This document shows positions 6,959 to 60,684 of a DNA stretch of 64,000 bases, piece after piece. Every line of letters begins with the position of its first letter. The stretch's first letter is position 1. The position numbers were made by a program, and so were the translations under genes. Under the pieces are notes generated by a model. The model was not told the origin of the DNA. It was given only the letters and a program-made list of their open reading frames with translations, and did no database searches. Source of the DNA: Picochlorum sp. SENEW3 (taxonomy: Eukaryota); the NCBI GenBank assembly GCA_034226945.1, contig CP120455.1:1-64000 (forward strand), in the 5' to 3' direction.

Positions 6959-8487
6959 CTATGCAAACCGAAAAGAATATCTCTGCTGTTGAACCGACGA
7001 CGCAGTTTTCGTGATTGGACTGGATGTCTTGTCTTGATCCGATGGCCCAGCCGTGAAGGAAAAGCCAGAATGCACCGATGACCCATTGGAATGGGCAGAT
7101 CCGATGGACAAGCCCCTGACATGAAGGGCCTGTCCATATAACGGCGTCCTCTGTCGCGTGTGCTTGGGCGATATCCTCCTAGAAACCAGCTCCCCGTCAT
7201 TGTCGTGAGAGAGTGCTGCGCGATGAAAGTCGACTACCACGTGATCATCACCAGCTTGCCGTGGCACTTCTCCAGGCCGTAGAAGCACGTCTTGAGCTGG
7301 TGTGTATTCGCTGTCCGTGCTTTCCAACTTTTTGTTTGTGGGCGTATCCGTATGGCTCAGTGCATCTTTCCCTCCCACTGATGTTGCCGAATCGGGCGTC
7401 CCATAGTCTAGATGACCATCATCTTGCGGGTGCGACAACGTGAGCATGGCCAGCCGCCTCTCATATAATGGCCTAATTACCCATGCAAAACATATTGCTA
7501 CGATTGATCCAGCTACTGTAGAGAAGAATCCCAGCCAGAGACCTTGATTGACCCATCCGAATGGACTGAAAGGCACGCTGGCTGCAAGACAGCCAGCTCC
7601 TCCCACCAACAGGGCCGTGGCACACGTGGCATACCATACCAGTTTCCTCCTCAATATAATATTTGTCACAATGTTTTTTAACTTCCAGACCAATCGCCAC
7701 ATCTGAAACACGTACAGTGCACAAAATATGCAGTGGACAATGGCAGATGCAGCTGGGAACACGCACGCTGTGCATGGTTCCAAACCGCACTGGGATGGCG
7801 ATCCAATCCGATACGTCCCTATGAAATATCCCAATACCGATGTAGGGGAGTCTTCCACTGGTTTGCCATCATATGACACTGCCAGGCTGATCCATGCGGC
7901 AACAGATTGCAACCCTATGACCACCGCCAACTGACCTGAAGCAATGGCAACCGCAGCTTTGGATCTCCAAGAGGGCCTTTTCTCATCTTCCAAATTCGTT
8001 CCAATTACTTTCATCGCGGACGCAAAGGTGTGTTGCCTGTATTCGTGTCGGCACAGTGCTCTGAACAAGAACATCATTACCATGGTCTGACAAAGAGGAA
8101 ATAGCAATCCAAGGCACACTGTCAGATACACTCGGCACATCCAACCCTGCGATGTCCATGACGTCACCGTCGATGGGGCTACTACAGAGTACGGTCCCCA
8201 GATGACGTTCAACCTCAATATCTGCACAGCAGCGAGCAAAGCACATACAACGGCTAAATACCATCTGCCCCGAGCTGACCGGCGCGTTCCGTTGGCACAC
8301 GAGAAAGACAGGCTAAACGGGACTCCATACCATCTGCCCCGAGCTGACCGGCGCGTTCCGTTGGCACACGAGAAAGACAGGCTAAACGGGACGAGGGTGT
8401 ATACGAGAACACCCGTGCACAAAGCCACCAAAAGGCCCGAGAGAACCCACACGTAGTATTCGGGTGCCCGAAGCTGTTCACTTCCAT
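6959..8487 (-). CDS. Seven-TM, GPCR-like membrane protein with Ser-rich C-terminal tail (copy 1); start uncertain
   Basis: Seven hydrophobic segments by eye, Cys at the top of TM3 (WMCRVY) and Cys-rich loop before TM5. The likely ATG (MEVNSFRAPEYY) is in frame only in copy 2, implying a 1-nt error at an AGCT here. Confidence 0.75.
8258..8392. repeat. In-frame 69-bp-period tandem duplication inside the 7TM gene (present in all four copies)
   Basis: 66 bp identical at 8258-8323 and 8327-8392; encodes VPFSLSFSCANGTRRSARGRWY twice. Confidence 0.95.
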
Positions 8488-8997: not shown

Positions 8998-10941
8998 ATG
9001 AGTGGGATGCTCGAGAACGGCTTTGGAGGCCACAATGGAGAGTCTCTGAAGCAAAGTCCCAAATCAGATATGTTTTCTACAGAAAGCGACGCGTCGATGT
9101 TGCATAAGACGAGTAAAAAGCATCTGAAGGCATCCCTGAGCAAGGCGTTCCTGTCAAAAGGAATGCCCGTAACCTTCAAGGACGTGGTGTATACGGTAGT
9201 CAACAGTCAGAACAAGAAGGAAAAAATCAATCTTCTGAAAGGCGTCAGCGGATATTTCGAGGTGGGACAGATGGCTGCTCTCATGGGTCCCTCAGGCTCG
9301 GGAAGTCTACCCTACTTGACGTTCTGGCCGGCAGGAAGACGGTGGGAAAGATTAGCGGTGATATCAAATTTGGAGGGGAGAAGCCTTCGCGCAACTTCCT
9401 CCGTCGTTACACGGGCTATGTGGAACAGACTGACACACTGCTACCAATCCTGACGGTGGAAGAGATGTTGTTGTACACGGCAGATCTCAAGAAGCCGATC
9501 TCCGAGTCGAAGAAGAGCAAGATGGATGCAGTGGAGGAGCTCCTCGGTGTGTTGGCGCTGGATTCCTGCAGAGACGTGTTGATTGGGAGTGAGCTGGCTC
9601 GAGGCATCTCTGGTGGTCAGGCCAAGAGGGTCAACATCGGTATAGCTTTGATCACAAATCCGAGGGTGTTGTTCTTGGATGAGCCCACGTCTGGGCTGGA
9701 TTCGTTTACGGCGAATGAAGTCATGTCGGTGGTCAAGTCTTTGGCATTGATGGGCATCACCGTGTGTGCCACCATTCACTCGCCAACACCATATGCATTC
9801 AGTCTCTTTGATCGCCTGCTTTTGCTCCTCCGCGGAGGCACCGCGTATTTCGGAATTAATGGCTCTGTGGCTCTGGAGTATTTCCATAGCGTATCTCCTA
9901 CGGATATCACGGGCTTGCGAGAGGGGGAGAACGAGGCTGAATGGATTGTGGACATCACCACTCTGGCAGACAGACAAGGGCGACAGGATGACTTTGTGAG
10001 GGCCTTCGCCAAGAGCGAGATCAAACTTCAAGGAGACAAAGAAATAGATCATATGCTGCAGAAAACGTCTACATTGGACGAGCAGACGAAGAAAGACCTT
10101 GCAGTCAAGCGTGACACGGTCACCCCCACCTGGTGGGCGCTGAAGACCCTATTCAAGTACAGGACCTCTAAGAATTATCGGTCTCCAGAGTTCCTTGGGC
10201 CTCGCGTGATGGATAAATTGATCTTCTCAATCATCATCTTCACACTCTATTGGGCAATTGGGAACAAGTTGACGCCAGACAACTACATCAATATTGCTGC
10301 CGTCCTCTTTATGTGGTGTACATTGCCTGCCTTTGGTGCGGCATCCTATGTGCCAGCTATCGTCTTGGAACGTCCTTTGTTCGTAAGGGAAAGAAGCGAC
10401 GGCCTGTATAAGGTAGTGACGTACCTGTCGTACAAAATCTGTGAAGAGCTGGTGTTGCCCTGCTGAGCAGTCTGATCTTTTCAATGTCGTGTTCTGGCCG
10501 ATTAAGTTCCAGGGTCAATGGGTGCTATTTTGGCTTGTGTACTATGCGACACTGGGGTGTGGCATTGTCGTGGCTTATTTCGTAGCTGCTCTCTCGCCCA
10601 ACATGGACGTAGCCAATGCAGCACTGCCTTCCTATGTGGTCACCCTGCTTTTCTTTTCAGGTTTCTTGCTGAGATGGTCGGACATTCCAAAATGGTGGCA
10701 ATGGTATGGATACATTAATTTTCTGCGGTATGCCTGGGGCTCACTGATGGTGAATCAATTTGGTGGCTTTGATTCATTGCCGCCTTTTGTGAGCGACCCA
10801 GAGCCCATATCCATCCTTGATTATTACTCTCTTGGAGGTGTGTCCAAGTGGGCTTGGTTTGGCATTGAGCTCGCCTTCTTCGTAGTTTTCTTCTTCTTTG
10901 CATTCCTTGCCTTGACCTATGTCAGACACGTGAGGCGTTGA
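8998..10941 (+). CDS. ABCG (White/WBC) half-transporter (copy 1; apparent 1-nt frameshifts)
   Basis: Walker A GPSGSGKS, signature ISGGQAKR, Walker B VLFLDEPTSGLD, H-loop TIHSP, C-terminal ABC2 membrane domain; frameshifts differ between copies. Confidence 0.9.
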
Positions 10942-20853: not shown

Positions 20854-22801
20854 ATGAGTGGGATGCTCGAGAACGGCTTTGGAGGCCACAATGGAGAGTC
20901 TCTGAAGCAAAGTCCCAAATCAGATATGTCTTCTACAGAAAGCGACGCGTCGATGTTGCATAAGACGAGTAAAAAGCATCTGAAGGCATCCCTGAGCAAG
21001 GCGTTCCTGTCAAAAGGAATGCCCGTAACCTTCAAGGACGTGGTGTATACGGTAGTCAACAGTCAGAACAAGAAGGAAAAAATCAATCTTCTGAAAGGCG
21101 TCAGCGGATATTTCGAGGTGGGACAGATGGCTGCTCTCATGGGTCCCTCAGGCTCGGGGAAGTCTACCCTACTTGACGTTCTGGCCGGCAGGAAGACGGT
21201 GGGAAAGATTAGCGGTGATATCAAATTTGGAGGGGAGAAGCCTTCGCGCAACTTCCTCCGTCGTTACACGGGCTATGTGGAACAGACTGACACACTGCTG
21301 CCAATCCTGACGGTGGAAGAGATGTTGTTGTACACGGCAGATCTCAAGAAGCCGATCTCCGAGTCGAAGAAGAGCAAGATGGATGCAGTGGAGGAGCTCC
21401 TCGGTGTGTTGGCGCTGGATTCCTGCAGAGACGTGTTGATTGGGAGTGAGCTGGCTCGAGGCATCTCTGGTGGTCAGGCCAAGAGGGTCAACATCGGTAT
21501 AAGCTTTGATCACAAATCCGAGGGTGTTGTTCTTGGATGAGCCCACGTCTGGGCTGGATTCGTTTACGGCGAATGAAGTCATGTCGGTGGTCAAGTCTTT
21601 GGCATTGATGGGCATCACCGTGTGTGCCACCATTCACTCGCCAACACCATATGCATTCAGTCTCTTTGATCGCCTGCTTTTGCTCCTCCGCGGAGGCACC
21701 GCGTATTTCGGAATTAATGGCTCTGTGGCTCTGGAGTATTTCCATAGCGTATCTCCTACGGATATCACGGGCTTGCGAGAGGGGGAGAACGAGGCTGAAT
21801 GGATTGTGGACATCACCACTCTGGCAGACAGACAAGGGCGACAGGATGACTTTGTGAGGGCCTTCGCCAAGAGCGAGATCAAACTTCAAGGAGACAAAGA
21901 AATAGATCATATGCTGCAGAAAACGTCTACATTGGACGAGCAGACGAAGAAAGACCTTGCAGTCAAGCGTGACACGGTCACCCCCACCTGGTGGGCGCTG
22001 AAGACCCTATTCAAGTACAGGACCTCTAAGAATTATCGGTCTCCAGAGTTCCTTGGGCCTCGCGTGATGGATAAATTGATCTTCTCAATCATCATCTTCA
22101 CACTCTATTGGGCAATTGGGAACAAGTTGACGCCAGACAACTACATCAATATTGCTGCCGTCCTCTTTATGTGGTGTACATTGCCTGCCTTTGGTGCGGC
22201 ATCCTATGTGCCAGCTATCGTCTTGGAACGTCCTTTGTTCGTAAGGGAAAGAAGCGACGGCCTGTATAAGGTAGTGACGTACCTGTCGTACAAAATCTGT
22301 GAAGAGCTTGGTGTTGCCCTGCTGAGCAGTCTGATCTTTTCCAATGTCGTGTTCTGGCCGATTAAGTTCCAGGGTCAATGGGTGCTATTTTGGCTTGTGT
22401 ACTATGCGACACTGGGGTGTGGCATTGTCGTGGCTTATTTCGTAGCTGCTCTCTCGCCCAACATGGACGTAGCCAATGCAGCACTGCCTTCCTATGTGGT
22501 CACCCTGCTTTTCTTTTCAGGTTTCTTGCTGAGATGGTCGGACATTCCAAAATGGTGGCAATGGTATGGATACATTAATTTTCTGCGGTATGCCTGGGGC
22601 TCACTGATGGTGAATCAATTTGGTGGCTTTGATTCATTGCCGCCTTTTGTGAGCGACCCAGAGCCCATATCCATCCTTGATTATTACTCTCTTGGAGGTG
22701 TGTCCAAGTGGGCTTGGTTTGGCATTGAGCTCGCCTTCTTCGTAGTTTTCTTCTTCTTTGCATTCCTTGCCTTGACCTATGTCAGACACGTGAGGCGTTG
22801 A
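20854..22801 (+). CDS. ABCG half-transporter (copy 3; single apparent frameshift near 21501)
   Basis: ORFs 20836-21540 and 21506-22801 join by removing one A in GGTATAAGCTTTG. Confidence 0.9.
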
Positions 22802-53478: not shown

Positions 53479-55477
53479 ATGCCGGGTTCCTCGTTCTCGG
53501 CATCGACCACTGTGTCAAATATTGTGCTTTCCATCGGATCTGGAATTTACAAGGATATAAGAAAGAGATTTCCATGGTACGAGAGCGACTGGAAGGACAT
53601 TGGGAAGAATAAATTAAGGTACTGAAAGAAAAACGTTTTGTGGCTGGTCAACTCCGTTTGTGTATGGATGAGTCATGCTGGTGCTTCTTGCGTGCAGAGT
53701 GGCTGCTGCATCGACGTACATATTTTTTGCTTCAGTGGTTCCCGCTTTAGCATTCGGGGAACAATTTGCCTCCGAGACTGATGGGTTGATCAATGTAGTT
53801 CATGTGCTGGCAGCCTGTGCTACAACTGGCGTGATGCAAGCTGTTTTTGGAGGGCAGCCATTGCTCATTGTCGGTGTGGCGGAGCCAATTGTTTTGGTGT
53901 ACAAGTATATGTATGATTTTGCCAAGGACAGAGAAGATCTTGGAAGAAATTTGTTCTTGGCTTGGAGCTCTTGGGTTTGCGTGTTCACCGCCATATTTGT
54001 TGCAGTTTTGGCAGTCACTAATGCCTGCGTGTACATTAATAAATTTACTCGATTTGCCGGAGAGGCTTTTGGGGCTCTGATTGCTATATTGTTCATGCAA
54101 CAGGCCATCAAAGGCCTGGTAGAGGAGTTTCAAAGGGAGGAGTTGACTTCCGATGGACGCACAATGAATGGCCTTTGGAGTTTATTTCTGGCCTTTGGTA
54201 TGGTCATTACATCGCTCATGATTAGAAAAGCTCGGAAGTGGCGATTTTTGTTTGCCCCGCTGCGGGCTCTTTTGGCAGATTATGGAGTGCCTCTGCTTGT
54301 AGTGGTCTGGACTGGTCTCAGTTATGCTGTTGATTATCCTGGGGTTCCCGCCAGGGTCCAAACGCCCAACACATGGGATGTAAAGGACTGTTGGAAGGTG
54401 ACGACTGTCATGTCGTCTGTCCCCTCCAAGTACATTGGAGCAGCTGTTATCCCAGCCATCATCATGACGGTGCTCTTTTTCTTTGACCACAATGTCAGCA
54501 GCCAACTGGCCCAGCAGCCAGAATTTAACCTAAAAAAGCCGAGCACATATCATTATGATATGATGCTATTGGCGCTCATGACACTGCTGTGCGGTCTGCT
54601 CGGCATTCCTCCAGTGAATGGGGTGATTCCGCAGTCTCCCATGCACACAAAGAGCCTTGCCTTGGTAGAGAGTGGACAGAGAAAACGGCAGAGCGAACAC
54701 ACCTCCGCCAATGGGATCCGAGAGGGTTCAAAAGGAGAGGATGGCACAACAGAAACACGCACGCCTCCACATGATGGTGGTGCTTACATTCCGCTCAGAG
54801 TTGCAGAACAGCGTGGCTCTGGGCTCGCTCAAGCCCTTGCCATTGGGGCCTGCCTCGGACTCACCCCCGCCATCCGATGGTTGCCAACAGCTGTCCTATG
54901 GGGATATTTCGCATTTATGGCATGCGAATCACTTCCTGGCTCACAGCTGTGGGAGAGAATTCTCCTCCTGCTGACAGATCCTAAGAGAAGATACATGGCA
55001 CTGGAAGAGCAGCATGTTGCATTTCTGGAGACAGTCCCATTCAAGGTGATTGCTGCTTTTACTGCGCTGCAAACAGTGATCGTTCTTGGAATATACGGCA
55101 TCACTTGGGCTGGAGTTGCTGGTGTTTTATTCCCCATTCCCATCATGCTGTTGGTTCCATTCAGGCAGTACATTATGCCTAAAATGTTCAATGCAGTCTA
55201 CCTGGAGGAATTAGACAAATTGACCGAAGAAGAAGCTGGTCCTCTACCTCACGAAGAAGCGATCAGGGAAGCACAAGAGCAAGGTCTGGGCATTGAGGAT
55301 GGGCAGGAGGAAGAAGATATTGAATCTGAAATGGCCCATTTCCGGGTGGTCCATCACGCGTCTCACCGAGAAATCGAGGCCAGGAGATCTTCAATACGCC
55401 ACAGGCACTCAAGGAATAACAATTCCAGTAATAATTCGAGTCATAATGACAATAATGACCAGGGAAACAGCGTGTGA
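53479..55477 (+). CDS. BOR: Boron transporter BOR / SLC4 anion exchanger family (intron ~53619-53698)
   Basis: DIRKRFPWYESDW, YIFFASVVPALAFGEQ, GGQPLLIVGVAEP, FFDHNVSSQLAQQPEFNLKKP, PPVNGVIPQSPMHTKSL. Confidence 0.95.
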
Positions 55478-56154
55478 TGGATTTCTGTAAACTTTCGTCC
55501 TGTCTACTACAGCCTTGGCAAAGGGTCAAAGGGTGGAACGCAACCGCACGTTCCACTCCCAGAATCCTGATTGCACGAGGCGGAAGAAAATATGCTATTA
55601 TTAAATCACATGGAGGAGCTCCTAGGGCCCAAAGTGGTCCAGAGTCGGAAGGACCAAACTCTTTCTTGTTTGAACGGGGAAAGCGCAAAGAGAGCGAAGC
55701 ACACAATTTTAGGCCATCTCTCGAATACTCTCGAGAGGAAGCCATCATGAAGCAGCTCGAGGCGCTGCAGAACAACAACGAGCCTTATCCTGACCACGGG
55801 ATTGAGGTTTTGTATCGTTTTGCCGGGAGACACCTTGATCCGTTTGCGCCCAGCTTTTACTTTGGCAGAAGCCTGGATCTGGGGCAGTTTGAGAGATTTC
55901 GAAGGATCATGAATACCGAATGCTACAGAATTTTGGTCAACCACACAGAGTACACGATATGTAGCGGCCTACAAGTATCTGAGCACGTATGGAAGAGTCG
56001 AGTCAAGGTGAAGAATGCATGGCAAAAACGAGAGGCCATGTTTGAGTTCACCATGGTACGGGAGTTGGGAGGGAGATACGATGGTATCTGGTTTTGCCAA
56101 AGACTCATCTGCCAAGACGATGAAGATGGCCGGCATATTTATGGCGTCATCTAG
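55477..56154 (+). CDS. Conserved hypothetical protein with transit-peptide-like N-terminus
   Basis: 225 aa ORF; basic Ser/Ala-rich leader followed by a globular-looking core (QLEALQNNNEPYPDHGIEVLYRFA...DLGQFERFRR...GRYDGIW). Confidence 0.75.
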   Translation: MDFCKLSSCLLQPWQRVKGWNATARSTPRILIARGGRKYAIIKSHGGAPRAQSGPESEGPNSFLFERGKRKESEAHNFRPSLEYSREEAIMKQLEALQNNNEPYPDHGIEVLYRFAGRHLDPFAPSFYFGRSLDLGQFERFRRIMNTECYRILVNHTEYTICSGLQVSEHVWKSRVKVKNAWQKREAMFEFTMVRELGGRYDGIWFCQRLICQDDEDGRHIYGVI

Positions 56155-56307
56155 GCGGAGCTATTTATGTAGCTTTCTCAAAAGCTTTGCAAAAATCGAT
56201 GAATCCCTCAAAAAGGCAACGGAGGGAGCACTTCCTTCCTTGAGAATGAATTGTATATTATTCAATCAAAAAATTTGAAACATGTCGCATCTATTTGTTG
56301 ATATAGA

Positions 56308-59300
56308 ATGACAGAGTGTCCCACGTTGATAATAGCCGGGTCGTCGACCGCGGTGGGGAAATCCTCAGTCTCTTTGGGACTCATGGCAGCACTCAGGTGC
56401 GGGTGATTTTTGGGTATGAAAATGAGTGATATGGTTATTTAATGGCATTGAATGGATGCAGCGATGGGAACACGTCTGTGCAAGCGTTCAAAGTTGGTCC
56501 AGGTGCGCAACTGTTTTCCCAACCTTACCACTGTTTCTTTCTCGCACATCAGGTACTTATGGGCAATGCCATATACTATGCAGACTTTGTTGATCCTTTA
56601 TATCATGCCCGTGCCACAGGAAGGCCTTCCATTAACCTCGATAGGTGGTTTTCGAGTCCCCGTGGGTTGAGGGACGTGTGGCACAGGCACAGAAAAGATG
56701 CCGATTTTTGCATCGTGGAAGGGACGATGGGCCTTTCGGATGATCTCAAGTGTCCCATTGCAGGCGGATCTGAGGATCTCTTGCCGTTCAGCACCGCCCA
56801 GGTGGCAAAGTGGTTGAATGTTCCCGTGGTTTTGGTGATGGATGGGTCAAAGCTGGAGAACAGCATTGGTGCTCTCGTGAGAGGCTACTGCACGTGGGAC
56901 AAGGGAGTTCGAATAGCTGGAATTATATTTAATAATGTCGGAGAACAGGACGATCTGGTAGACCTCGAGGCCATTGTGAACAATGCTTGCCCGCATGAGA
57001 TTCCTATTCTGGGTGGCATTCCATTTGATGAAGCTTCCCCAGATGGCACCCTGGAGTCTGCGTTCGATTCATCGGTGATCGACAACAAAATATTTAACTT
57101 ATCTTCAGTCGTATGTCAGTATGTTGATGTCAAGGCGCTGGTGGCAATTGCTCGGGAATCACTTGATGCGAGGTGTCCCCCAGGAGACCTCTCTCCAACA
57201 GAGAGGAATGGTGCACAAGCGCAACGGAAATCAAAGAATGCAAAAAGGAGGGAGCGGAGAAAAAGAGCAAAGCAAGGGCAGATGGAGAAGCATGGTAACC
57301 AGGAGCGAAGTGGGAGTACTTCCTCCGACCAAGTCTCATCAGGAGGACATTCTGAGGAGGCCAACGGTCGCAGCCCAGTCTCACGGATAGCCATTGCAAG
57401 GGACAATGCATTTTGCTTTTATTACGAAGAAAATTTAGAGTTGATGAGGATCCATGGGTTAGAACTAGTCTTCTTCTCACCTCTCACCGATCCTCTGCCA
57501 CCAAACATAGCAGCAGTGTACCTTGGCGGTGGGGTACCAGAATTGCATGCGGCCACACTGGCCGACAACAAAGTATTTCGAGCAGGGATGAAAAAATTTG
57601 TCGAATCTGGTGGAGTTGTTCTAGCGGAAGGTGGAGGGTTACTTGCTTTGTGTCAAAGCTTGCAGACTCGCACCGGGTTTCCTCAGCAACCCATGGTCGG
57701 AATCTTCCCTTTTCGGGCCATCATGTCAAGAACACAGGTGATGAAAAGTTACGTAGAAGTCAAGGTCAAAGATAATTGCCCGATATTCACCCCTGGAGCT
57801 ACAATCAAGGGTTATATTTGCAGTGATAGTGAGCTTGTTCAGGAACAGCATATTGGTGGCATTCAGTCGACCGATGAGTGGACCAGCTCGTACGAGGCCA
57901 GAGTTTTCCGCGGCAAGAAGCCCATTGCTCAAGCTTCTGGCATGATAGATGGCTACACTACATCAAATGTGCTGGCTTCGTATGTTCACCATTATTTTGG
58001 CTCCTCGGAAGGTGTATTAAAGACACTCGTGAGCAAATGCCAGGAAGTTAATGTCGGAGCCGTTACTGCAGCAGTTGCAGGGTCTCGTAGGATGGCAGAT
58101 TGTTTGGAGGGCTCGGTAGCATATACACCTCCTTTGACAGTACGTTTTTCATCACTGCGTTGAAATCAGGTGCTGACTGTTCTGATATGATTTGTTGAAT
58201 GTGCAGCCTCTGGGAAATCGTTCAAACTTGGGAATGCTTGGGGTCCACTCCTCACCAGACCTTTCTCGAGCACGCTCAAGGCCACAATCGATGGACTTGA
58301 ATACATACGACTTTAGTGCGATGATAGATTCGAAACAGTTCATGTTGCCAAAGCCACAGAGCTCGGGATCTCTCTGTCACAGGACTGCTTTTGCATTTGA
58401 CCACACGGCATACGACCAGAAATCTTCTGGTGCCGCTTCACCAGTTCAGTTAGGGAGTGCAACAGATCTGAATACTTTGGCTACTTCCCGGCGCAACTTG
58501 ACGCGCATGCAAGGTGGCGGCATGGCTCAAGATGCAGACTACAAACAGCACGGTGCAAGGGTGTCACACGAGCGCTATGGGTTGCAGCACAGAGTGTCCA
58601 ACAATTCAGAATCGCAGTCAGTTCTTTCGAGCGAAGGGTCGGAGCTAATGGAACGCTACCAGAATCCTCCTGCGTTTGGAAAAAAGAAGATCGAGAGTGT
58701 TCACACAGCACCCCGGTATCCTGACCATGGGGGTCAATATCTCAAGGAGGCTGCCCAGTATTTGGATGTTAACCCGACAGGTTTGGCGAATACGACTGAA
58801 AATAAATCAATAGGTGTCTGTGATGCTGGTATCCGAGATATTTTGCAAGCCTTTGACATCACCTCCAGGGTGATTGATGTGTCACGGCATGGGCTGGGAC
58901 CTGCCATCATGACAGATGGGTCAGTTGGCATGCTTCAGAGCAAATCAGTTCAAGCACTTCAGCATTTTCATTCGAGGCGTAATAGTAGCGATGCGGGATC
59001 TGATTCTGCCTTTGGGGACGCTCTTCTCGAAAATGCAGTGAAAATGCCCTTTGGAAGAGTGGGTAGTACAGATATTGACTACGAAGTTGTGGCCCAGGTG
59101 CAGCCCGACCTTATCCTCATGCTCATCCCTGAAAAGATTGGCTCCAGCAAGATACAGAAGCACGTGAGAGAAAAGATCTACAGAGCTTCTCGGCGAACCA
59201 AGCTGATCGAGTTCACATCCCATTCTCTAGCAGACGTACTGCAGCACATTGTGGACATTGGTGATGCTATTCATGAGAGGGACCAAGCGGTCGCAATCGT

Positions 59301-59859
59301 GAAAAAGGTCAGAGAGCGCCTAAGAAAGGTTGTTATGTACTCACAGAAAGCCAAGTTGACATCTCCCAGCATGCCCGCGGTACCCAAGATTGCCGTCTTG
59401 GGATCGTTGCACCCTCTCACTGTGGAAGGAGCGTGGGTCCGAGATTTGGTCGAACTAGTCGGGGGCCAGCCCCTGCCAACGCGCGGCCGTAATAAAATGA
59501 TCATCTCCTGGGATGATCTGGTCGCCTTTGCCCCTGACTATCTAGTGATCTGTGCGCCAATCATCAACAGCGGGGATAAGAGTGCCAAGGTATTTAATGA
59601 CCTGTGTGACATTGCCTCCCAACCTGGATGGTGGCAGCTTCCTGCCGTGCGAGATGGCGTCGTCGTCATATGCGAAGAGGCTCTCTTGTGTCGGATGGGG
59701 ATTCGCCTGATCGACGGAGCAGAAGCGCTCACAAGAATCGTGTACGGCGACAATGTCCCAACATGCTGCCTCCCCAGATCAGCATTCAAACTGAAATTGA
59801 GACCTGGACAGCGGGTGAGACCCCGCCTCTTACCCAATTATTTCATGGCGTATGCATAG
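56308..59859 (+). CDS. CbiA/CobB (cobyrinate a,c-diamide synthase)-like protein fused to a C-terminal BtuF-like binding domain; exons 56308-56396, 56462-56502, 56584-58139, 58207-59859 (~1112 aa)
   Basis: IIAGSSTAVGKS P-loop, VQAFKVGPDFVDP, IVEGTMGL, STAQVAK, GIIFNNVG, RIAIARDNAFCFYYEENL, YLGGGVPEL, NVLASYVH; then QPDLIL, SLADVLQHIVDIG, AWVRDLVELVGG, ISWDDLVAFAPD, LPAVRDGVV, RMGIRLIDGAEAL. Confidence 0.85.
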
Positions 59860-59911: not shown

Positions 59912-60684
59912 ATGCTTCGGCAGAGTCTGAACCTCCTCCGTCGCCACGCAGCACGGACAGCAACTCGAGCCTTGCGGACCATCCCACCCAACCTTGCCGT
60001 GGGAGAAGACCCAATGCTAATTGTCATGGCATCGCGTTATGTCACATGGAGCCAGATGGTGGCCTCCCACGGAACCACACCTGCTCTCCCTGGCAAGACG
60101 GGTGAGCGACGACGTCTCTCGACAGGGAATGAGTACGCATCGCTCTCGTATGCTGTTACAATGGCTATGTAATGACAATGCACCATCATACTGCAGGGAT
60201 GAGATTGATGACGTTCGCTATCACAAGGAGGCAGACCACGCCTTGGAGTATCTTGTAGAGGCTTTTGAAAACCTGTTAGATGACATAGAGGCCGACGATG
60301 CCGACGTCGAGTTGAGCCAAGGCGTTCTAAATTTGAACTTGGGATCGATTGGGACGTATGTGATCAACAAGCAGACTCCCAACAAGCAGATATGGGTGTC
60401 CTCGCCAGTAAGGTATGGTATGCATTCCAACCCAACCTCACACATCATGTGCTGCAACCCCACACCAATTCATGCGTGACCCCTACTATTGCCTTCCTTG
60501 CAGTGGACCTGTGCGCTACGATTTCGTGAAAGGGTTCTGGACGTACAAGAGGGATGGTCACCTCTTCCACCAGCGGCTGGAGGAGGAAATCAAGGCCCTG
60601 ACTGGAGTGGACATTGATCTAAATCCGTGCAGTCATTGCGGCAAACGGAATGCCTGTGCTGATAACTACGAATGCGTTAAATAA
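59912..60684 (+). CDS. FXN: Frataxin with mitochondrial presequence; introns ~60133-60197 and ~60413-60503
   Basis: YHKEADHALE acidic helix, [44 protein letters not shown]. Confidence 0.95.

Follow-up and report, generated by a model that had tools for sequence, protein, structure and literature searches.

A CobB-type amidotransferase fused to a class III binding-protein domain in Picochlorum: a candidate corrinoid-handling protein of eukaryotes that has lost its glutaminase nucleophile in one algal lineage

Enzymes of the CobB/CbiA family use ATP and glutamine to amidate the a and c acetates of (hydrogeno)cobyrinic acid (PMC7242693). Their glutaminase half, the GATase_3 domain, has only one structurally solved relative, the GatD subunit of the MurT-GatD lipid II amidotransferase, in which C94 and H189 are essential; GatD and CobB/CobQ have in common a Cys-His dyad architecture, and this Cys-His pair is all that CobB/CobQ share with the triad amidotransferases (PMC5871853). 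Among the proteins that bind vitamin B12 (B12), BtuF serves the BtuCD importer in the periplasm, while the algal protein CBA1, whose predicted structure is BtuF-like, is required for B12 uptake (PMC10828217). In this study we describe a nuclear gene of four exons on the plus strand of a 64,000-nucleotide (nt) stretch of DNA from the eukaryotic alga Picochlorum sp. SENEW3 (the window: contig CP120455.1, positions 1 to 64,000), the predicted product of which joins a CobB/CbiA-type synthetase domain, a GATase_3 domain, a Ser-rich linker and a class III binding-protein domain (Peripla_BP_2) in one protein of 1112 amino acids (aa). The coordinates of its parts are collected in Table 1.

When compared with these systems, the Picochlorum protein resembles CobB/CbiA in having the same amidoligase and GATase_3 module, in passing the NCBIfam CobB equivalog NF002204 and in keeping the P-loop, the GPDF(I/V)DP and VEG motifs and the catalytic-site His. 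It differs from CobB/CbiA, however, in that it is eukaryotic and intron-containing, has a binding-protein domain attached and a basic insert separating its two enzyme domains, shows glycine (Gly393) in place of the nucleophile Cys, has lost nine more near-universal residues and occurs in a host with no known B12 pathway. Its likeness to GatD consists in a profile match (7.7e-8 to 6fqb_E), whereas GatD is a separate subunit that acts on peptidoglycan precursors and retains the Cys that the window domain lacks. The C-terminal domain has the class III fold in common with BtuF, but it is internal to a predicted cytosolic protein, has no signal peptide and contains a disordered insert of 56 aa. CBA1, which we compared by description only, differs in having a signal peptide, in being targeted to the endoplasmic reticulum and in carrying no enzyme domain (PMC10828217).

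The first-pass annotation of this DNA, which was made from the letters alone, had proposed that two separately listed open reading frames (ORFs) are joined in frame through a 67-nt phase-0 intron, that two small 5' exons restore the P-loop and the motif FKVGPDFVDP, and that the result is a single product of about 1112 aa. Our analysis agrees with each of these proposals. On the plus strand the stop-to-stop ORFs extend from 56430 to 58163 and from 58186 to 59859, and the lone stop that separates them (58161-58163) sits within intron 3, the borders of which read ACA/GTACGT...GTGCAG/CCT on the DNA at 58139/58140 and 58206/58207. Splicing of the four exons gives a frame of 3339 nt with a single terminal stop, and the three introns are in phases 2, 1 and 0. 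The product begins with MTECPTLIIAGSSTAVGKSS...FKVGPDFVDP. Its P-loop starts at residue 10, in register with the N-termini of bacterial CobB proteins in the alignment, so that neither a signal peptide nor a transit peptide precedes it; the earlier suggestion of an intracellular protein without a signal peptide is thereby supported. Letter for letter, the product is identical to WPT13888.1 (P0209, "Cobyrinate a,c-diamide synthase [Picochlorum sp. SENEW3]", 0 mismatches), and the gene model is therefore already public. Two hypothetical proteins of Picochlorum sp. BPE23, also of 1112 aa, differ from it at 13 and 14 positions. An upstream ORF of nine codons (MSHLFVDIE and a stop, 56282-56311), the TGA of which overlaps the main ATG at 56308, may be a chance occurrence or an element of translational control.

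Transcript assemblies bear directly on whether this is one gene or two. All or part of the stretch is contained in 22 public runs, four of which (X1, X2, X7 and X15) were aligned to it. One RNA-derived contig of 2507 nt from X2, a strain about 98% identical to SENEW3 with residue changes that agree with the BPE23 proteins, omits exactly 65, 81 and 67 nt at the three predicted introns, and a second X2 contig extends to the end of the gene. The contigs of X1, a run rated as probably DNA, read through the introns unspliced, and therefore the joined form is not genomic there. In X15, a metatranscriptome from another study, a contig begins at 58207 with a loose end of 13 letters, identical but for one letter to the last bases of exon 3, and this lends weak second support to the splicing of intron 3; X7 contigs, which cover only parts of the gene, do not span any of the three introns. 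In this compact genome the contigs of X2 extend into the neighbouring genes on either side, and for this reason they cannot prove a single full-length mRNA. One could accordingly propose two separate genes, one CobB-like and one for a binding protein, which only appear joined because transcripts assemble across neighbours, and the Picochlorum renovo orthologue is indeed modelled as two adjacent genes, Picre1 35940 and 35939 (P0029 and P0210, 525 and 384 aa). Against this proposal, the 67-nt GT..AG intron is removed exactly where the frame stays open and takes the only intervening stop with it, which is strong evidence for one coding sequence; at least 28 further records, as well as two other Picochlorum genomes, have the fusion annotated as a single protein; and the linker is conserved across the joint, with the motif LEGSVAYTPPLTP straddling the junction of exons 3 and 4. 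We consider two genes hardly credible, and the two P. renovo models are probably a gene-model split near intron 3 rather than a real fission.

The domain content agrees with that proposed in the first-pass annotation, namely a CbiA-type ATPase, a GATase-like domain, a Ser-rich linker (here about 220 aa) and a class III binding-protein fold. In the exon-3 ORF, Pfam finds GATase_3 (1e-26) and AAA_26 (2e-7), and exon 3 alone, although it lacks the first 44 residues, scores 283.6 bits against NF002204 (cut-off 254). The motifs GKSS (17-20), GPDFVDP (42-48) and VEG (88-90) align with those of nine bacterial CobB proteins, so the ATP-binding amidoligase motifs are present. No match was found by phmmer with exon 3 against the sequences of the PDB; a CobB profile, as opposed to a single sequence, reached GatD and BioD among them. 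The basic insert at aa 236-305 is absent from the Micractinium, Mesotaenium and bacterial proteins in the alignments. Within the Picochlorum clade it is only 25% identical overall, yet its basic run KNAKRRERRKRAK, which resembles a nuclear-localisation signal, is found in all nine proteins. The linker retains a series of short conserved motifs besides LEGSVAYTPPLTP, including GVHSSP(D/E)L, RSRPQSxDLN, QSSGSL, SGAASP, HRxSNNS and SSxGSEL. Its RxxS and SP motifs may be kinase sites and suggest control of the protein by phosphorylation.

The most marked departure from the CobB family lies in the glutaminase. Among 25 aligned sequences, 19 (10 eukaryotic, 9 bacterial) have AECGG at the nucleophile elbow, one has AEFAG and five have AEGGG, these last being the window protein and four other members of the Picochlorum clade. 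Among 152 proteins of the family, Cys occupies this position in 126, Gly in 17, all of them Picochlorum-type, and Phe in one, while eight gave no match to the motif, four of them being C-terminal pieces. When a CobB profile was aligned with the solved GatD structure, 'yaEcGGlmyL' fell on 'LAICGGFQLL' with Cys upon the catalytic Cys, and the His of the consensus YVHLHF fell on the GatD His (YFHGPI); in the window protein this His is present within SYVHHY (509-514). In 26 other CobB proteins, 85 columns show conservation of 92% or more; the clade has lost ten of these, the nucleophile among them. The amidoligase domain shows the replacements R136N, H167D, G112F/Y and A139G at residues kept in 24 to 26 of these 26 proteins, and an insertion follows the sequence GLSDD. 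The binding domain has changed as well: a Cys-Asp-Tyr-Pro motif (HECDYP after strand 2) is found in none of nine Picochlorum-clade rows, the window protein reading SRHGLG, whereas the other eukaryotic fused rows keep the Cys in 12 of 12 and Cys-Asp in 11 of 12. With Gly393 at the site of the nucleophile Cys, and with changes at several other invariant positions, a normal glutamine-dependent CbiA reaction is unlikely in the Picochlorum lineage, as judged from these alignments.

Such losses raise the question of whether the Picochlorum protein is only the decaying remnant of an enzyme that was useful in the past but has no function now. The loss of the nucleophile, of nine other invariant residues and of Cys-Asp-Tyr-Pro would fit this explanation, as would the long stem branches of the clade, which measure 1.01 in the CobB tree, where that of Nannochloris is 0.17, and 1.05 in the binding-domain tree. 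The frame of 1112 aa is nevertheless open, spliced and expressed. When nine clade members are aligned, identity within the three folded domains amounts to 63-67%, and 37-43% of the columns there are invariant, while the proteins overall are only 52-70% identical, and the linker motifs are conserved. Of the 31 differences listed for the X2 strain, out of 58 in all, 20 are synonymous and 11 are non-synonymous. A relic is thus very improbable in our view. As read from the alignments, Gly393, the nine further replaced CobB residues and the missing pocket motif, all of them in a protein that is conserved within its clade, are new here.

Our searches also indicate that the window protein belongs to a much wider family. 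A search for longer proteins returned 28 relatives of 980-1534 aa, most of them with GATase_3 and Peripla_BP_2, and a Pfam re-scan of seven of the 28 found the CbiA/AAA_26, GATase_3 and Peripla_BP_2 architecture. The Picochlorum-type clade is 52-62% identical to exon 3 of the window, and the family also includes proteins of Nannochloris, Micractinium, Mesotaenium (Mesen1), the dinoflagellate Polarella and the oomycete Aphanomyces. The proteins of Polarella and Aphanomyces have Kelch repeats in addition and end in DUF5522; a CobB-type model exists in Chara as well. The architecture thereby extends over Trebouxiophyceae and streptophyte algae as well as one oomycete and one dinoflagellate. In the ESM Atlas, two clusters with the same domain set (57 and 55 members) are 100% Eukaryota and are commonest in Chlorophyta and Streptophyta, respectively. 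With the binding domain as query, phmmer gave 1128 matches, the best of which beyond close relatives are long proteins that carry the domain at the C-terminus. The CobB domains of the eukaryote type separate from the others both in a FastTree phylogeny (34 rows versus 106, split 99) and in an IQ-TREE phylogeny under LG+C20 (16 rows versus 24, split 98). In the trees of the two domains, the CobB-binder fusions, represented by WPT13888.1, KAI8107965.1 of Picochlorum sp. BPE23 and the records from the genera just named, form a single eukaryote-wide clade for both domains, and both halves are of prokaryotic type, in support of the bacterial-type origin that had been proposed. Outside the Picochlorum clade the family mostly keeps ECGG and Cys-Asp-Tyr-Pro, in contrast to the window protein, which lacks both. 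The first-pass annotation had supposed that the architecture might exist unannotated in other chlorophytes; it does exist there, but the family reaches far beyond that group, and GenBank and JGI already annotate it. Our literature search, which did not extend to subscription journals and supplements, found no paper characterising a CobB-binder fusion, in line with the earlier statement that no protein of this architecture has been characterised. A haptophyte CobB-like protein is merely noted in a transcriptome paper (PMC4057078), and CobB/CbiA goes unmentioned in three papers on B12 in algae (PMC11439496, bioRxiv 10.64898/2026.08.07.738727 and PMC10828217). The family is thus known to databases and annotated, yet uncharacterised within the literature searched.

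The ligand of the binding domain is less easily read. The exon-4 ORF matches Peripla_BP_2 in Pfam (7e-9, 35.9 bits against a cut-off of 27.5), and an AlphaFold2 model of aa 755-1112 (pLDDT, the predicted local distance difference test score, 82.7) shows a two-lobe class III fold with model residues 43-95 disordered. Haem and siderophore binders are the top Foldseek matches of this model, with haem binders above BtuF, and since these rank first, B12 is not singled out by the fold; by Foldseek and VIA-align together, haem, siderophore and B12 binders cannot be separated. More informative are the closest stand-alone relatives, which by both phmmer and phylogeny are prokaryotic proteins of about 300-320 aa that start with MRIVSLLPSATE and, like the window domain, have no signal peptide. 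Their names are generic ('iron complex transport system substrate-binding protein'), with one 'cobalamin-binding protein', and no NCBIfam family cut-off was reached by any of the 30 that were scanned. They carry HECDYP and often CxVC, both of which are missing from the Picochlorum clade, and they are unfused. In the tree, the 15 binding domains from eukaryotes group together (98) within these signal-less proteins, where they join P0303 (95), whereas periplasmic-type binding proteins from the same loci are set apart by a branch (98) of length 1.36.

Some of the genomic neighbourhoods of these relatives point to corrinoids. In a scan that took one genome per prokaryotic species, 592 relatives were found and 80 loci were kept, with neighbours examined in 18 and RNA families scanned in 22. 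A cobalamin riboswitch (86-121 bits) is present in six of the 22 (L006, L011, L012, L016, L030 and L038), and these six loci encode TonB-dependent receptors and/or FecCD with an ABC ATPase and a second, periplasmic-type binding protein. On a single strand of L011 and L038, the riboswitch, the receptor and the signal-less binding protein follow one another head to tail, and in L011 a PduO-type adenosyltransferase and CobQ are nearby. The full order in both (L038:2270-9639, L011:3796-6942) is riboswitch, TonB-dependent receptor, (an unknown ORF of 496 aa), signal-less and then periplasmic binding protein, ABC ATPase and FecCD, and such operons suggest that the signal-less Peripla_BP_2 protein is a cytoplasmic B12 acceptor in bacteria. 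As regards the corrinoid link of the binding domain, the earlier claim is not supported as it was written, through BtuF, for which NCBIfam gives no match, but it does find support in the nearest signal-less relatives and their riboswitch loci. By its place in the tree, the binding domain descends from signal-less and predicted cytoplasmic prokaryotic binding proteins, some of them encoded in B12 uptake loci, and this origin is new here.

A separate observation from the same loci concerns DUF5522. A gene for a small protein of this family immediately follows the gene for the signal-less binding protein in at least four of the 80 loci (L006:6921-7265, L003 near 7239, L005 near 3190 and L009 near 3343), as identified by Pfam in L006 (3.2e-16) and by motif match in the other three. 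Because DUF5522 adjoins the binding protein in prokaryotes and is fused to it in the Kelch-bearing eukaryotic CobB-binder proteins, the domain seems tied to the same unknown process. Our literature search found no paper on DUF5522.

These neighbourhoods also help in weighing a different substrate. The family could act on a non-corrin tetrapyrrole that eukaryotes themselves produce or take up, such as sirohydrochlorin/sirohaem or haem, in parallel with CfbB, which amidates Ni-sirohydrochlorin. The CfbB model, however, scores 240.9 bits and so falls far short of its threshold of 560, while the CobB equivalog exceeds its own. The closest prokaryotic relatives of the binding domain, moreover, are associated with cobalamin riboswitches, BtuB-type receptors, CobQ and a PduO-type adenosyltransferase and not with haem genes. 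We regard a non-corrin substrate as clearly unlikely.

Taking these lines of evidence together, we propose, with confidence that stands about midway between doubt and belief, that the family consists of cytosolic corrinoid-handling proteins and that the Picochlorum copy no longer hydrolyses glutamine. In the family at large, the binding domain would keep a corrinoid, once imported, in the cytosol. On corrinoids that are de-amidated or not fully amidated, the CobB module would amidate the acetate side chains a and c with ATP and glutamine-derived ammonia, an activity that would amount to salvage or repair and not to de novo synthesis. In Picochlorum, glutamine hydrolysis would be absent, and the protein would be either an ammonia-dependent amidoligase or a non-catalytic scaffold that binds tetrapyrroles or corrinoids, with the RxxS and SP motifs of the linker placing it under phosphorylation control. 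Between these two, we hold the non-catalytic scaffold to be a little more likely. To our knowledge, eukaryotes do not make B12. The physiology of the genus is compatible with a role in corrinoid handling: P. tauri is reported to have METH, METE, MUT, MMAA and MMAB and to grow without B12, and words that begin with 'cobyrin' are absent from that paper (PMC12458973). Picochlorum is therefore a facultative B12 user, for which the sensing of B12 would be useful.

Several observations weigh against this proposal of a corrinoid-handling protein. For the CobB half, the exon-3 piece falls just below the cut-off of the subfamily model TIGR00379 (258.4 versus 261.4 bits). B12 breakdown, moreover, mostly de-amidates the propionamide chains, which are amidated by CobQ and not by CobB. 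For the binding half, the best NCBIfam match of the window's binding domain is IsdE (1.3e-5), far under its cut-off, and the BtuF model NF002894 (cut-off 234 bits) gave no match at E<=0.01, its score with the Micractinium relative being 18.4 bits. The riboswitch link is limited to the six loci named above, with none in the second batch of 11, and the riboswitch-linked relatives are only about 24% identical to the window's binding domain. Since the Cys-Asp-Tyr-Pro motif of the relatives is missing, the window protein may have acquired a different ligand or may no longer have one. In none of the 80 prokaryotic loci is CobB adjacent to the binding protein, so that the pairing is without prokaryotic precedent and the fusion appears to be a eukaryotic invention. 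Finally, in the trees the label 'prokaryote' for unnamed rows was assumed from length and domain content.

That the Picochlorum protein may still be an enzyme deserves consideration. As an ammonia-dependent corrinoid a,c-amidoligase, it would use the dead glutaminase as a structural partner or as the entry for ammonia, and the binding domain would deliver the substrate. Glutamine amidotransferases with a mutated Cys can use free ammonia, the motifs GKSS, GPDFVDP and VEG are intact, the CobB equivalog is above its cut-off, and the GATase domain is 66% conserved within the clade. The replacements R136N, H167D, G112F/Y and A139G in the synthetase domain, together with the insertion after GLSDD, run the other way, because they suggest a changed substrate site. 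We treat an active enzyme as a possibility, though on the unlikely side. A more specific role can be imagined for a non-enzymatic protein, namely that the Picochlorum fusion is an intracellular corrinoid sensor that controls B12-responsive genes such as METE. Ligand binding at the C-terminal domain would be read out through the dead CobB module and the phospho-motif linkers, and would lead either to nuclear entry by way of the clade-specific insert bearing KNAKRRERRKRAK or to a change of partners. We speculate on this role as quite improbable; if it were true, it would supply the missing B12 sensor of algae that lack B12 riboswitches. A milder possibility, which applies to the family as a whole, would be that one step of corrinoid side-chain amidation is performed by eukaryotes themselves for salvage or repair.

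What makes the corrinoid-handling proposal worth pursuing is that a CobB-type corrin amidotransferase and a cytosolic B12-type binder are retained in green algae, streptophyte algae, an oomycete and a dinoflagellate despite the lack of B12 synthesis in eukaryotes. How algae handle, remodel, repair and sense corrinoids after uptake is an open question of phytoplankton ecology, for which the fusion family offers a concrete and testable candidate. The Picochlorum copy may be viewed as a natural experiment, in which the same architecture is still conserved minus the nucleophile and the pocket motif, and comparison with the Cys-bearing orthologues of Nannochloris and Micractinium could part a catalytic role from a role in binding or signalling. 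The signal-less binding proteins of cobalamin-riboswitch operons, with their DUF5522 neighbour, likewise flag an unstudied bacterial cytoplasmic protein that may handle B12.

Table 1. Positions of the CobB-binder fusion gene and its parts in the 64,000-nt window.
Feature	Position	Strand	Basis
Exon 1: start codon and P-loop (IIAGSSTAVGKSS, aa 8-20)	56308-56396	+	Translation; exon end used in X2 spliced contig; P-loop aligns with bacterial CobB
Intron 1, 65 nt, GT..AG	56397-56461	+	Skipped in X2 contig (record 14), retained in DNA-like X1 contig (record 2)
Exon 2, 41 nt (...DGNTSVQAFKVGP)	56462-56502	+	Sequence, translation, X2 contig
Intron 2, 81 nt, GT..AG	56503-56583	+	Skipped in X2 contig
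Exon 3: remaining synthetase domain, basic insert, GATase_3, start of linker	56584-58139	+	Pfam GATase_3 and AAA_26; NCBIfam NF002204
Intron 3, 67 nt, phase 0, GT..AG	58140-58206	+	Skipped in X2 with 255+ letters on each side; X15 loose end; retained in X1 record 4
Exon 4: linker, binding-protein domain, stop TAG (59857-59859)	58207-59859	+	Pfam and translation
CobB/CbiA synthetase (ATP-dependent amidoligase) domain, aa 1-235, spans introns 1 and 2	56308-57158	+	GKSS 17-20, GPDFVDP 42-48, VEG 88-90 kept; 63% mean clade identity
Clade-specific insert, aa 236-305, basic run KNAKRRERRKRAK (261-273)	57159-57368	+	Alignment of 9 Picochlorum-clade proteins
GATase_3 domain without nucleophile Cys, aa 306-535	57369-58058	+	Pfam 94.3 bits; 66% mean identity, 40% invariant columns in clade
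Codon GGT, Gly393 at the catalytic Cys position of CobB/CobQ/GatD (AECGG to AEGGG)	57630-57632	+	Alignments, profile-to-PDB alignment
Linker, Ser-rich, aa 536-759, spans intron 3	58059-58797	+	Composition; 49% mean identity, 20% invariant columns, 9 clade members
Class III (Peripla_BP_2) binding-protein domain, aa 760-1112, no signal peptide	58798-59856	+	Pfam
Disordered insert in binding domain (56 aa), aa 801-856, conserved LQSKSVQALQ...SRRNSSDAGS	58921-59088	+	Clade alignment

The genomic setting is eukaryotic. The window has about 48% G+C, and the genes that flank the fusion are unrelated eukaryotic genes for an HCO3-type transporter, frataxin, Pex2/12 and the Mg-chelatase subunit ChlD. 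A bacterial contaminant was considered and was rejected on account of the spliceosomal introns, the eukaryotic neighbours and the chromosome-scale records. Location of the protein in the plastid or the mitochondrion was likewise rejected, because no N-terminal extension precedes the P-loop. An Rfam scan of the whole window found no RNA family. Directly upstream of the fusion lies an ORF of 231 aa (55459-56151) with no Pfam family, from which an X2 contig continues into the fusion gene, and downstream is a two-exon frataxin gene (60021-60684), the 64-nt GT..AG intron of which (60133-60196) is spliced in both X2 and X7 contigs. Farther upstream, from about 2700 to 28300, the window contains a tandem array with periodic composition and a unit of about 5.93 kb, marked by identical 69-nt double repeats at 8258, 14181, 20114 and 26048. 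Its units hold minus-strand ORFs of 512-545 aa without a Pfam family, together with ABC-G-type ORFs that combine ABC_tran and ABC2_membrane (for example, 9117-10463 and 21503-22798).

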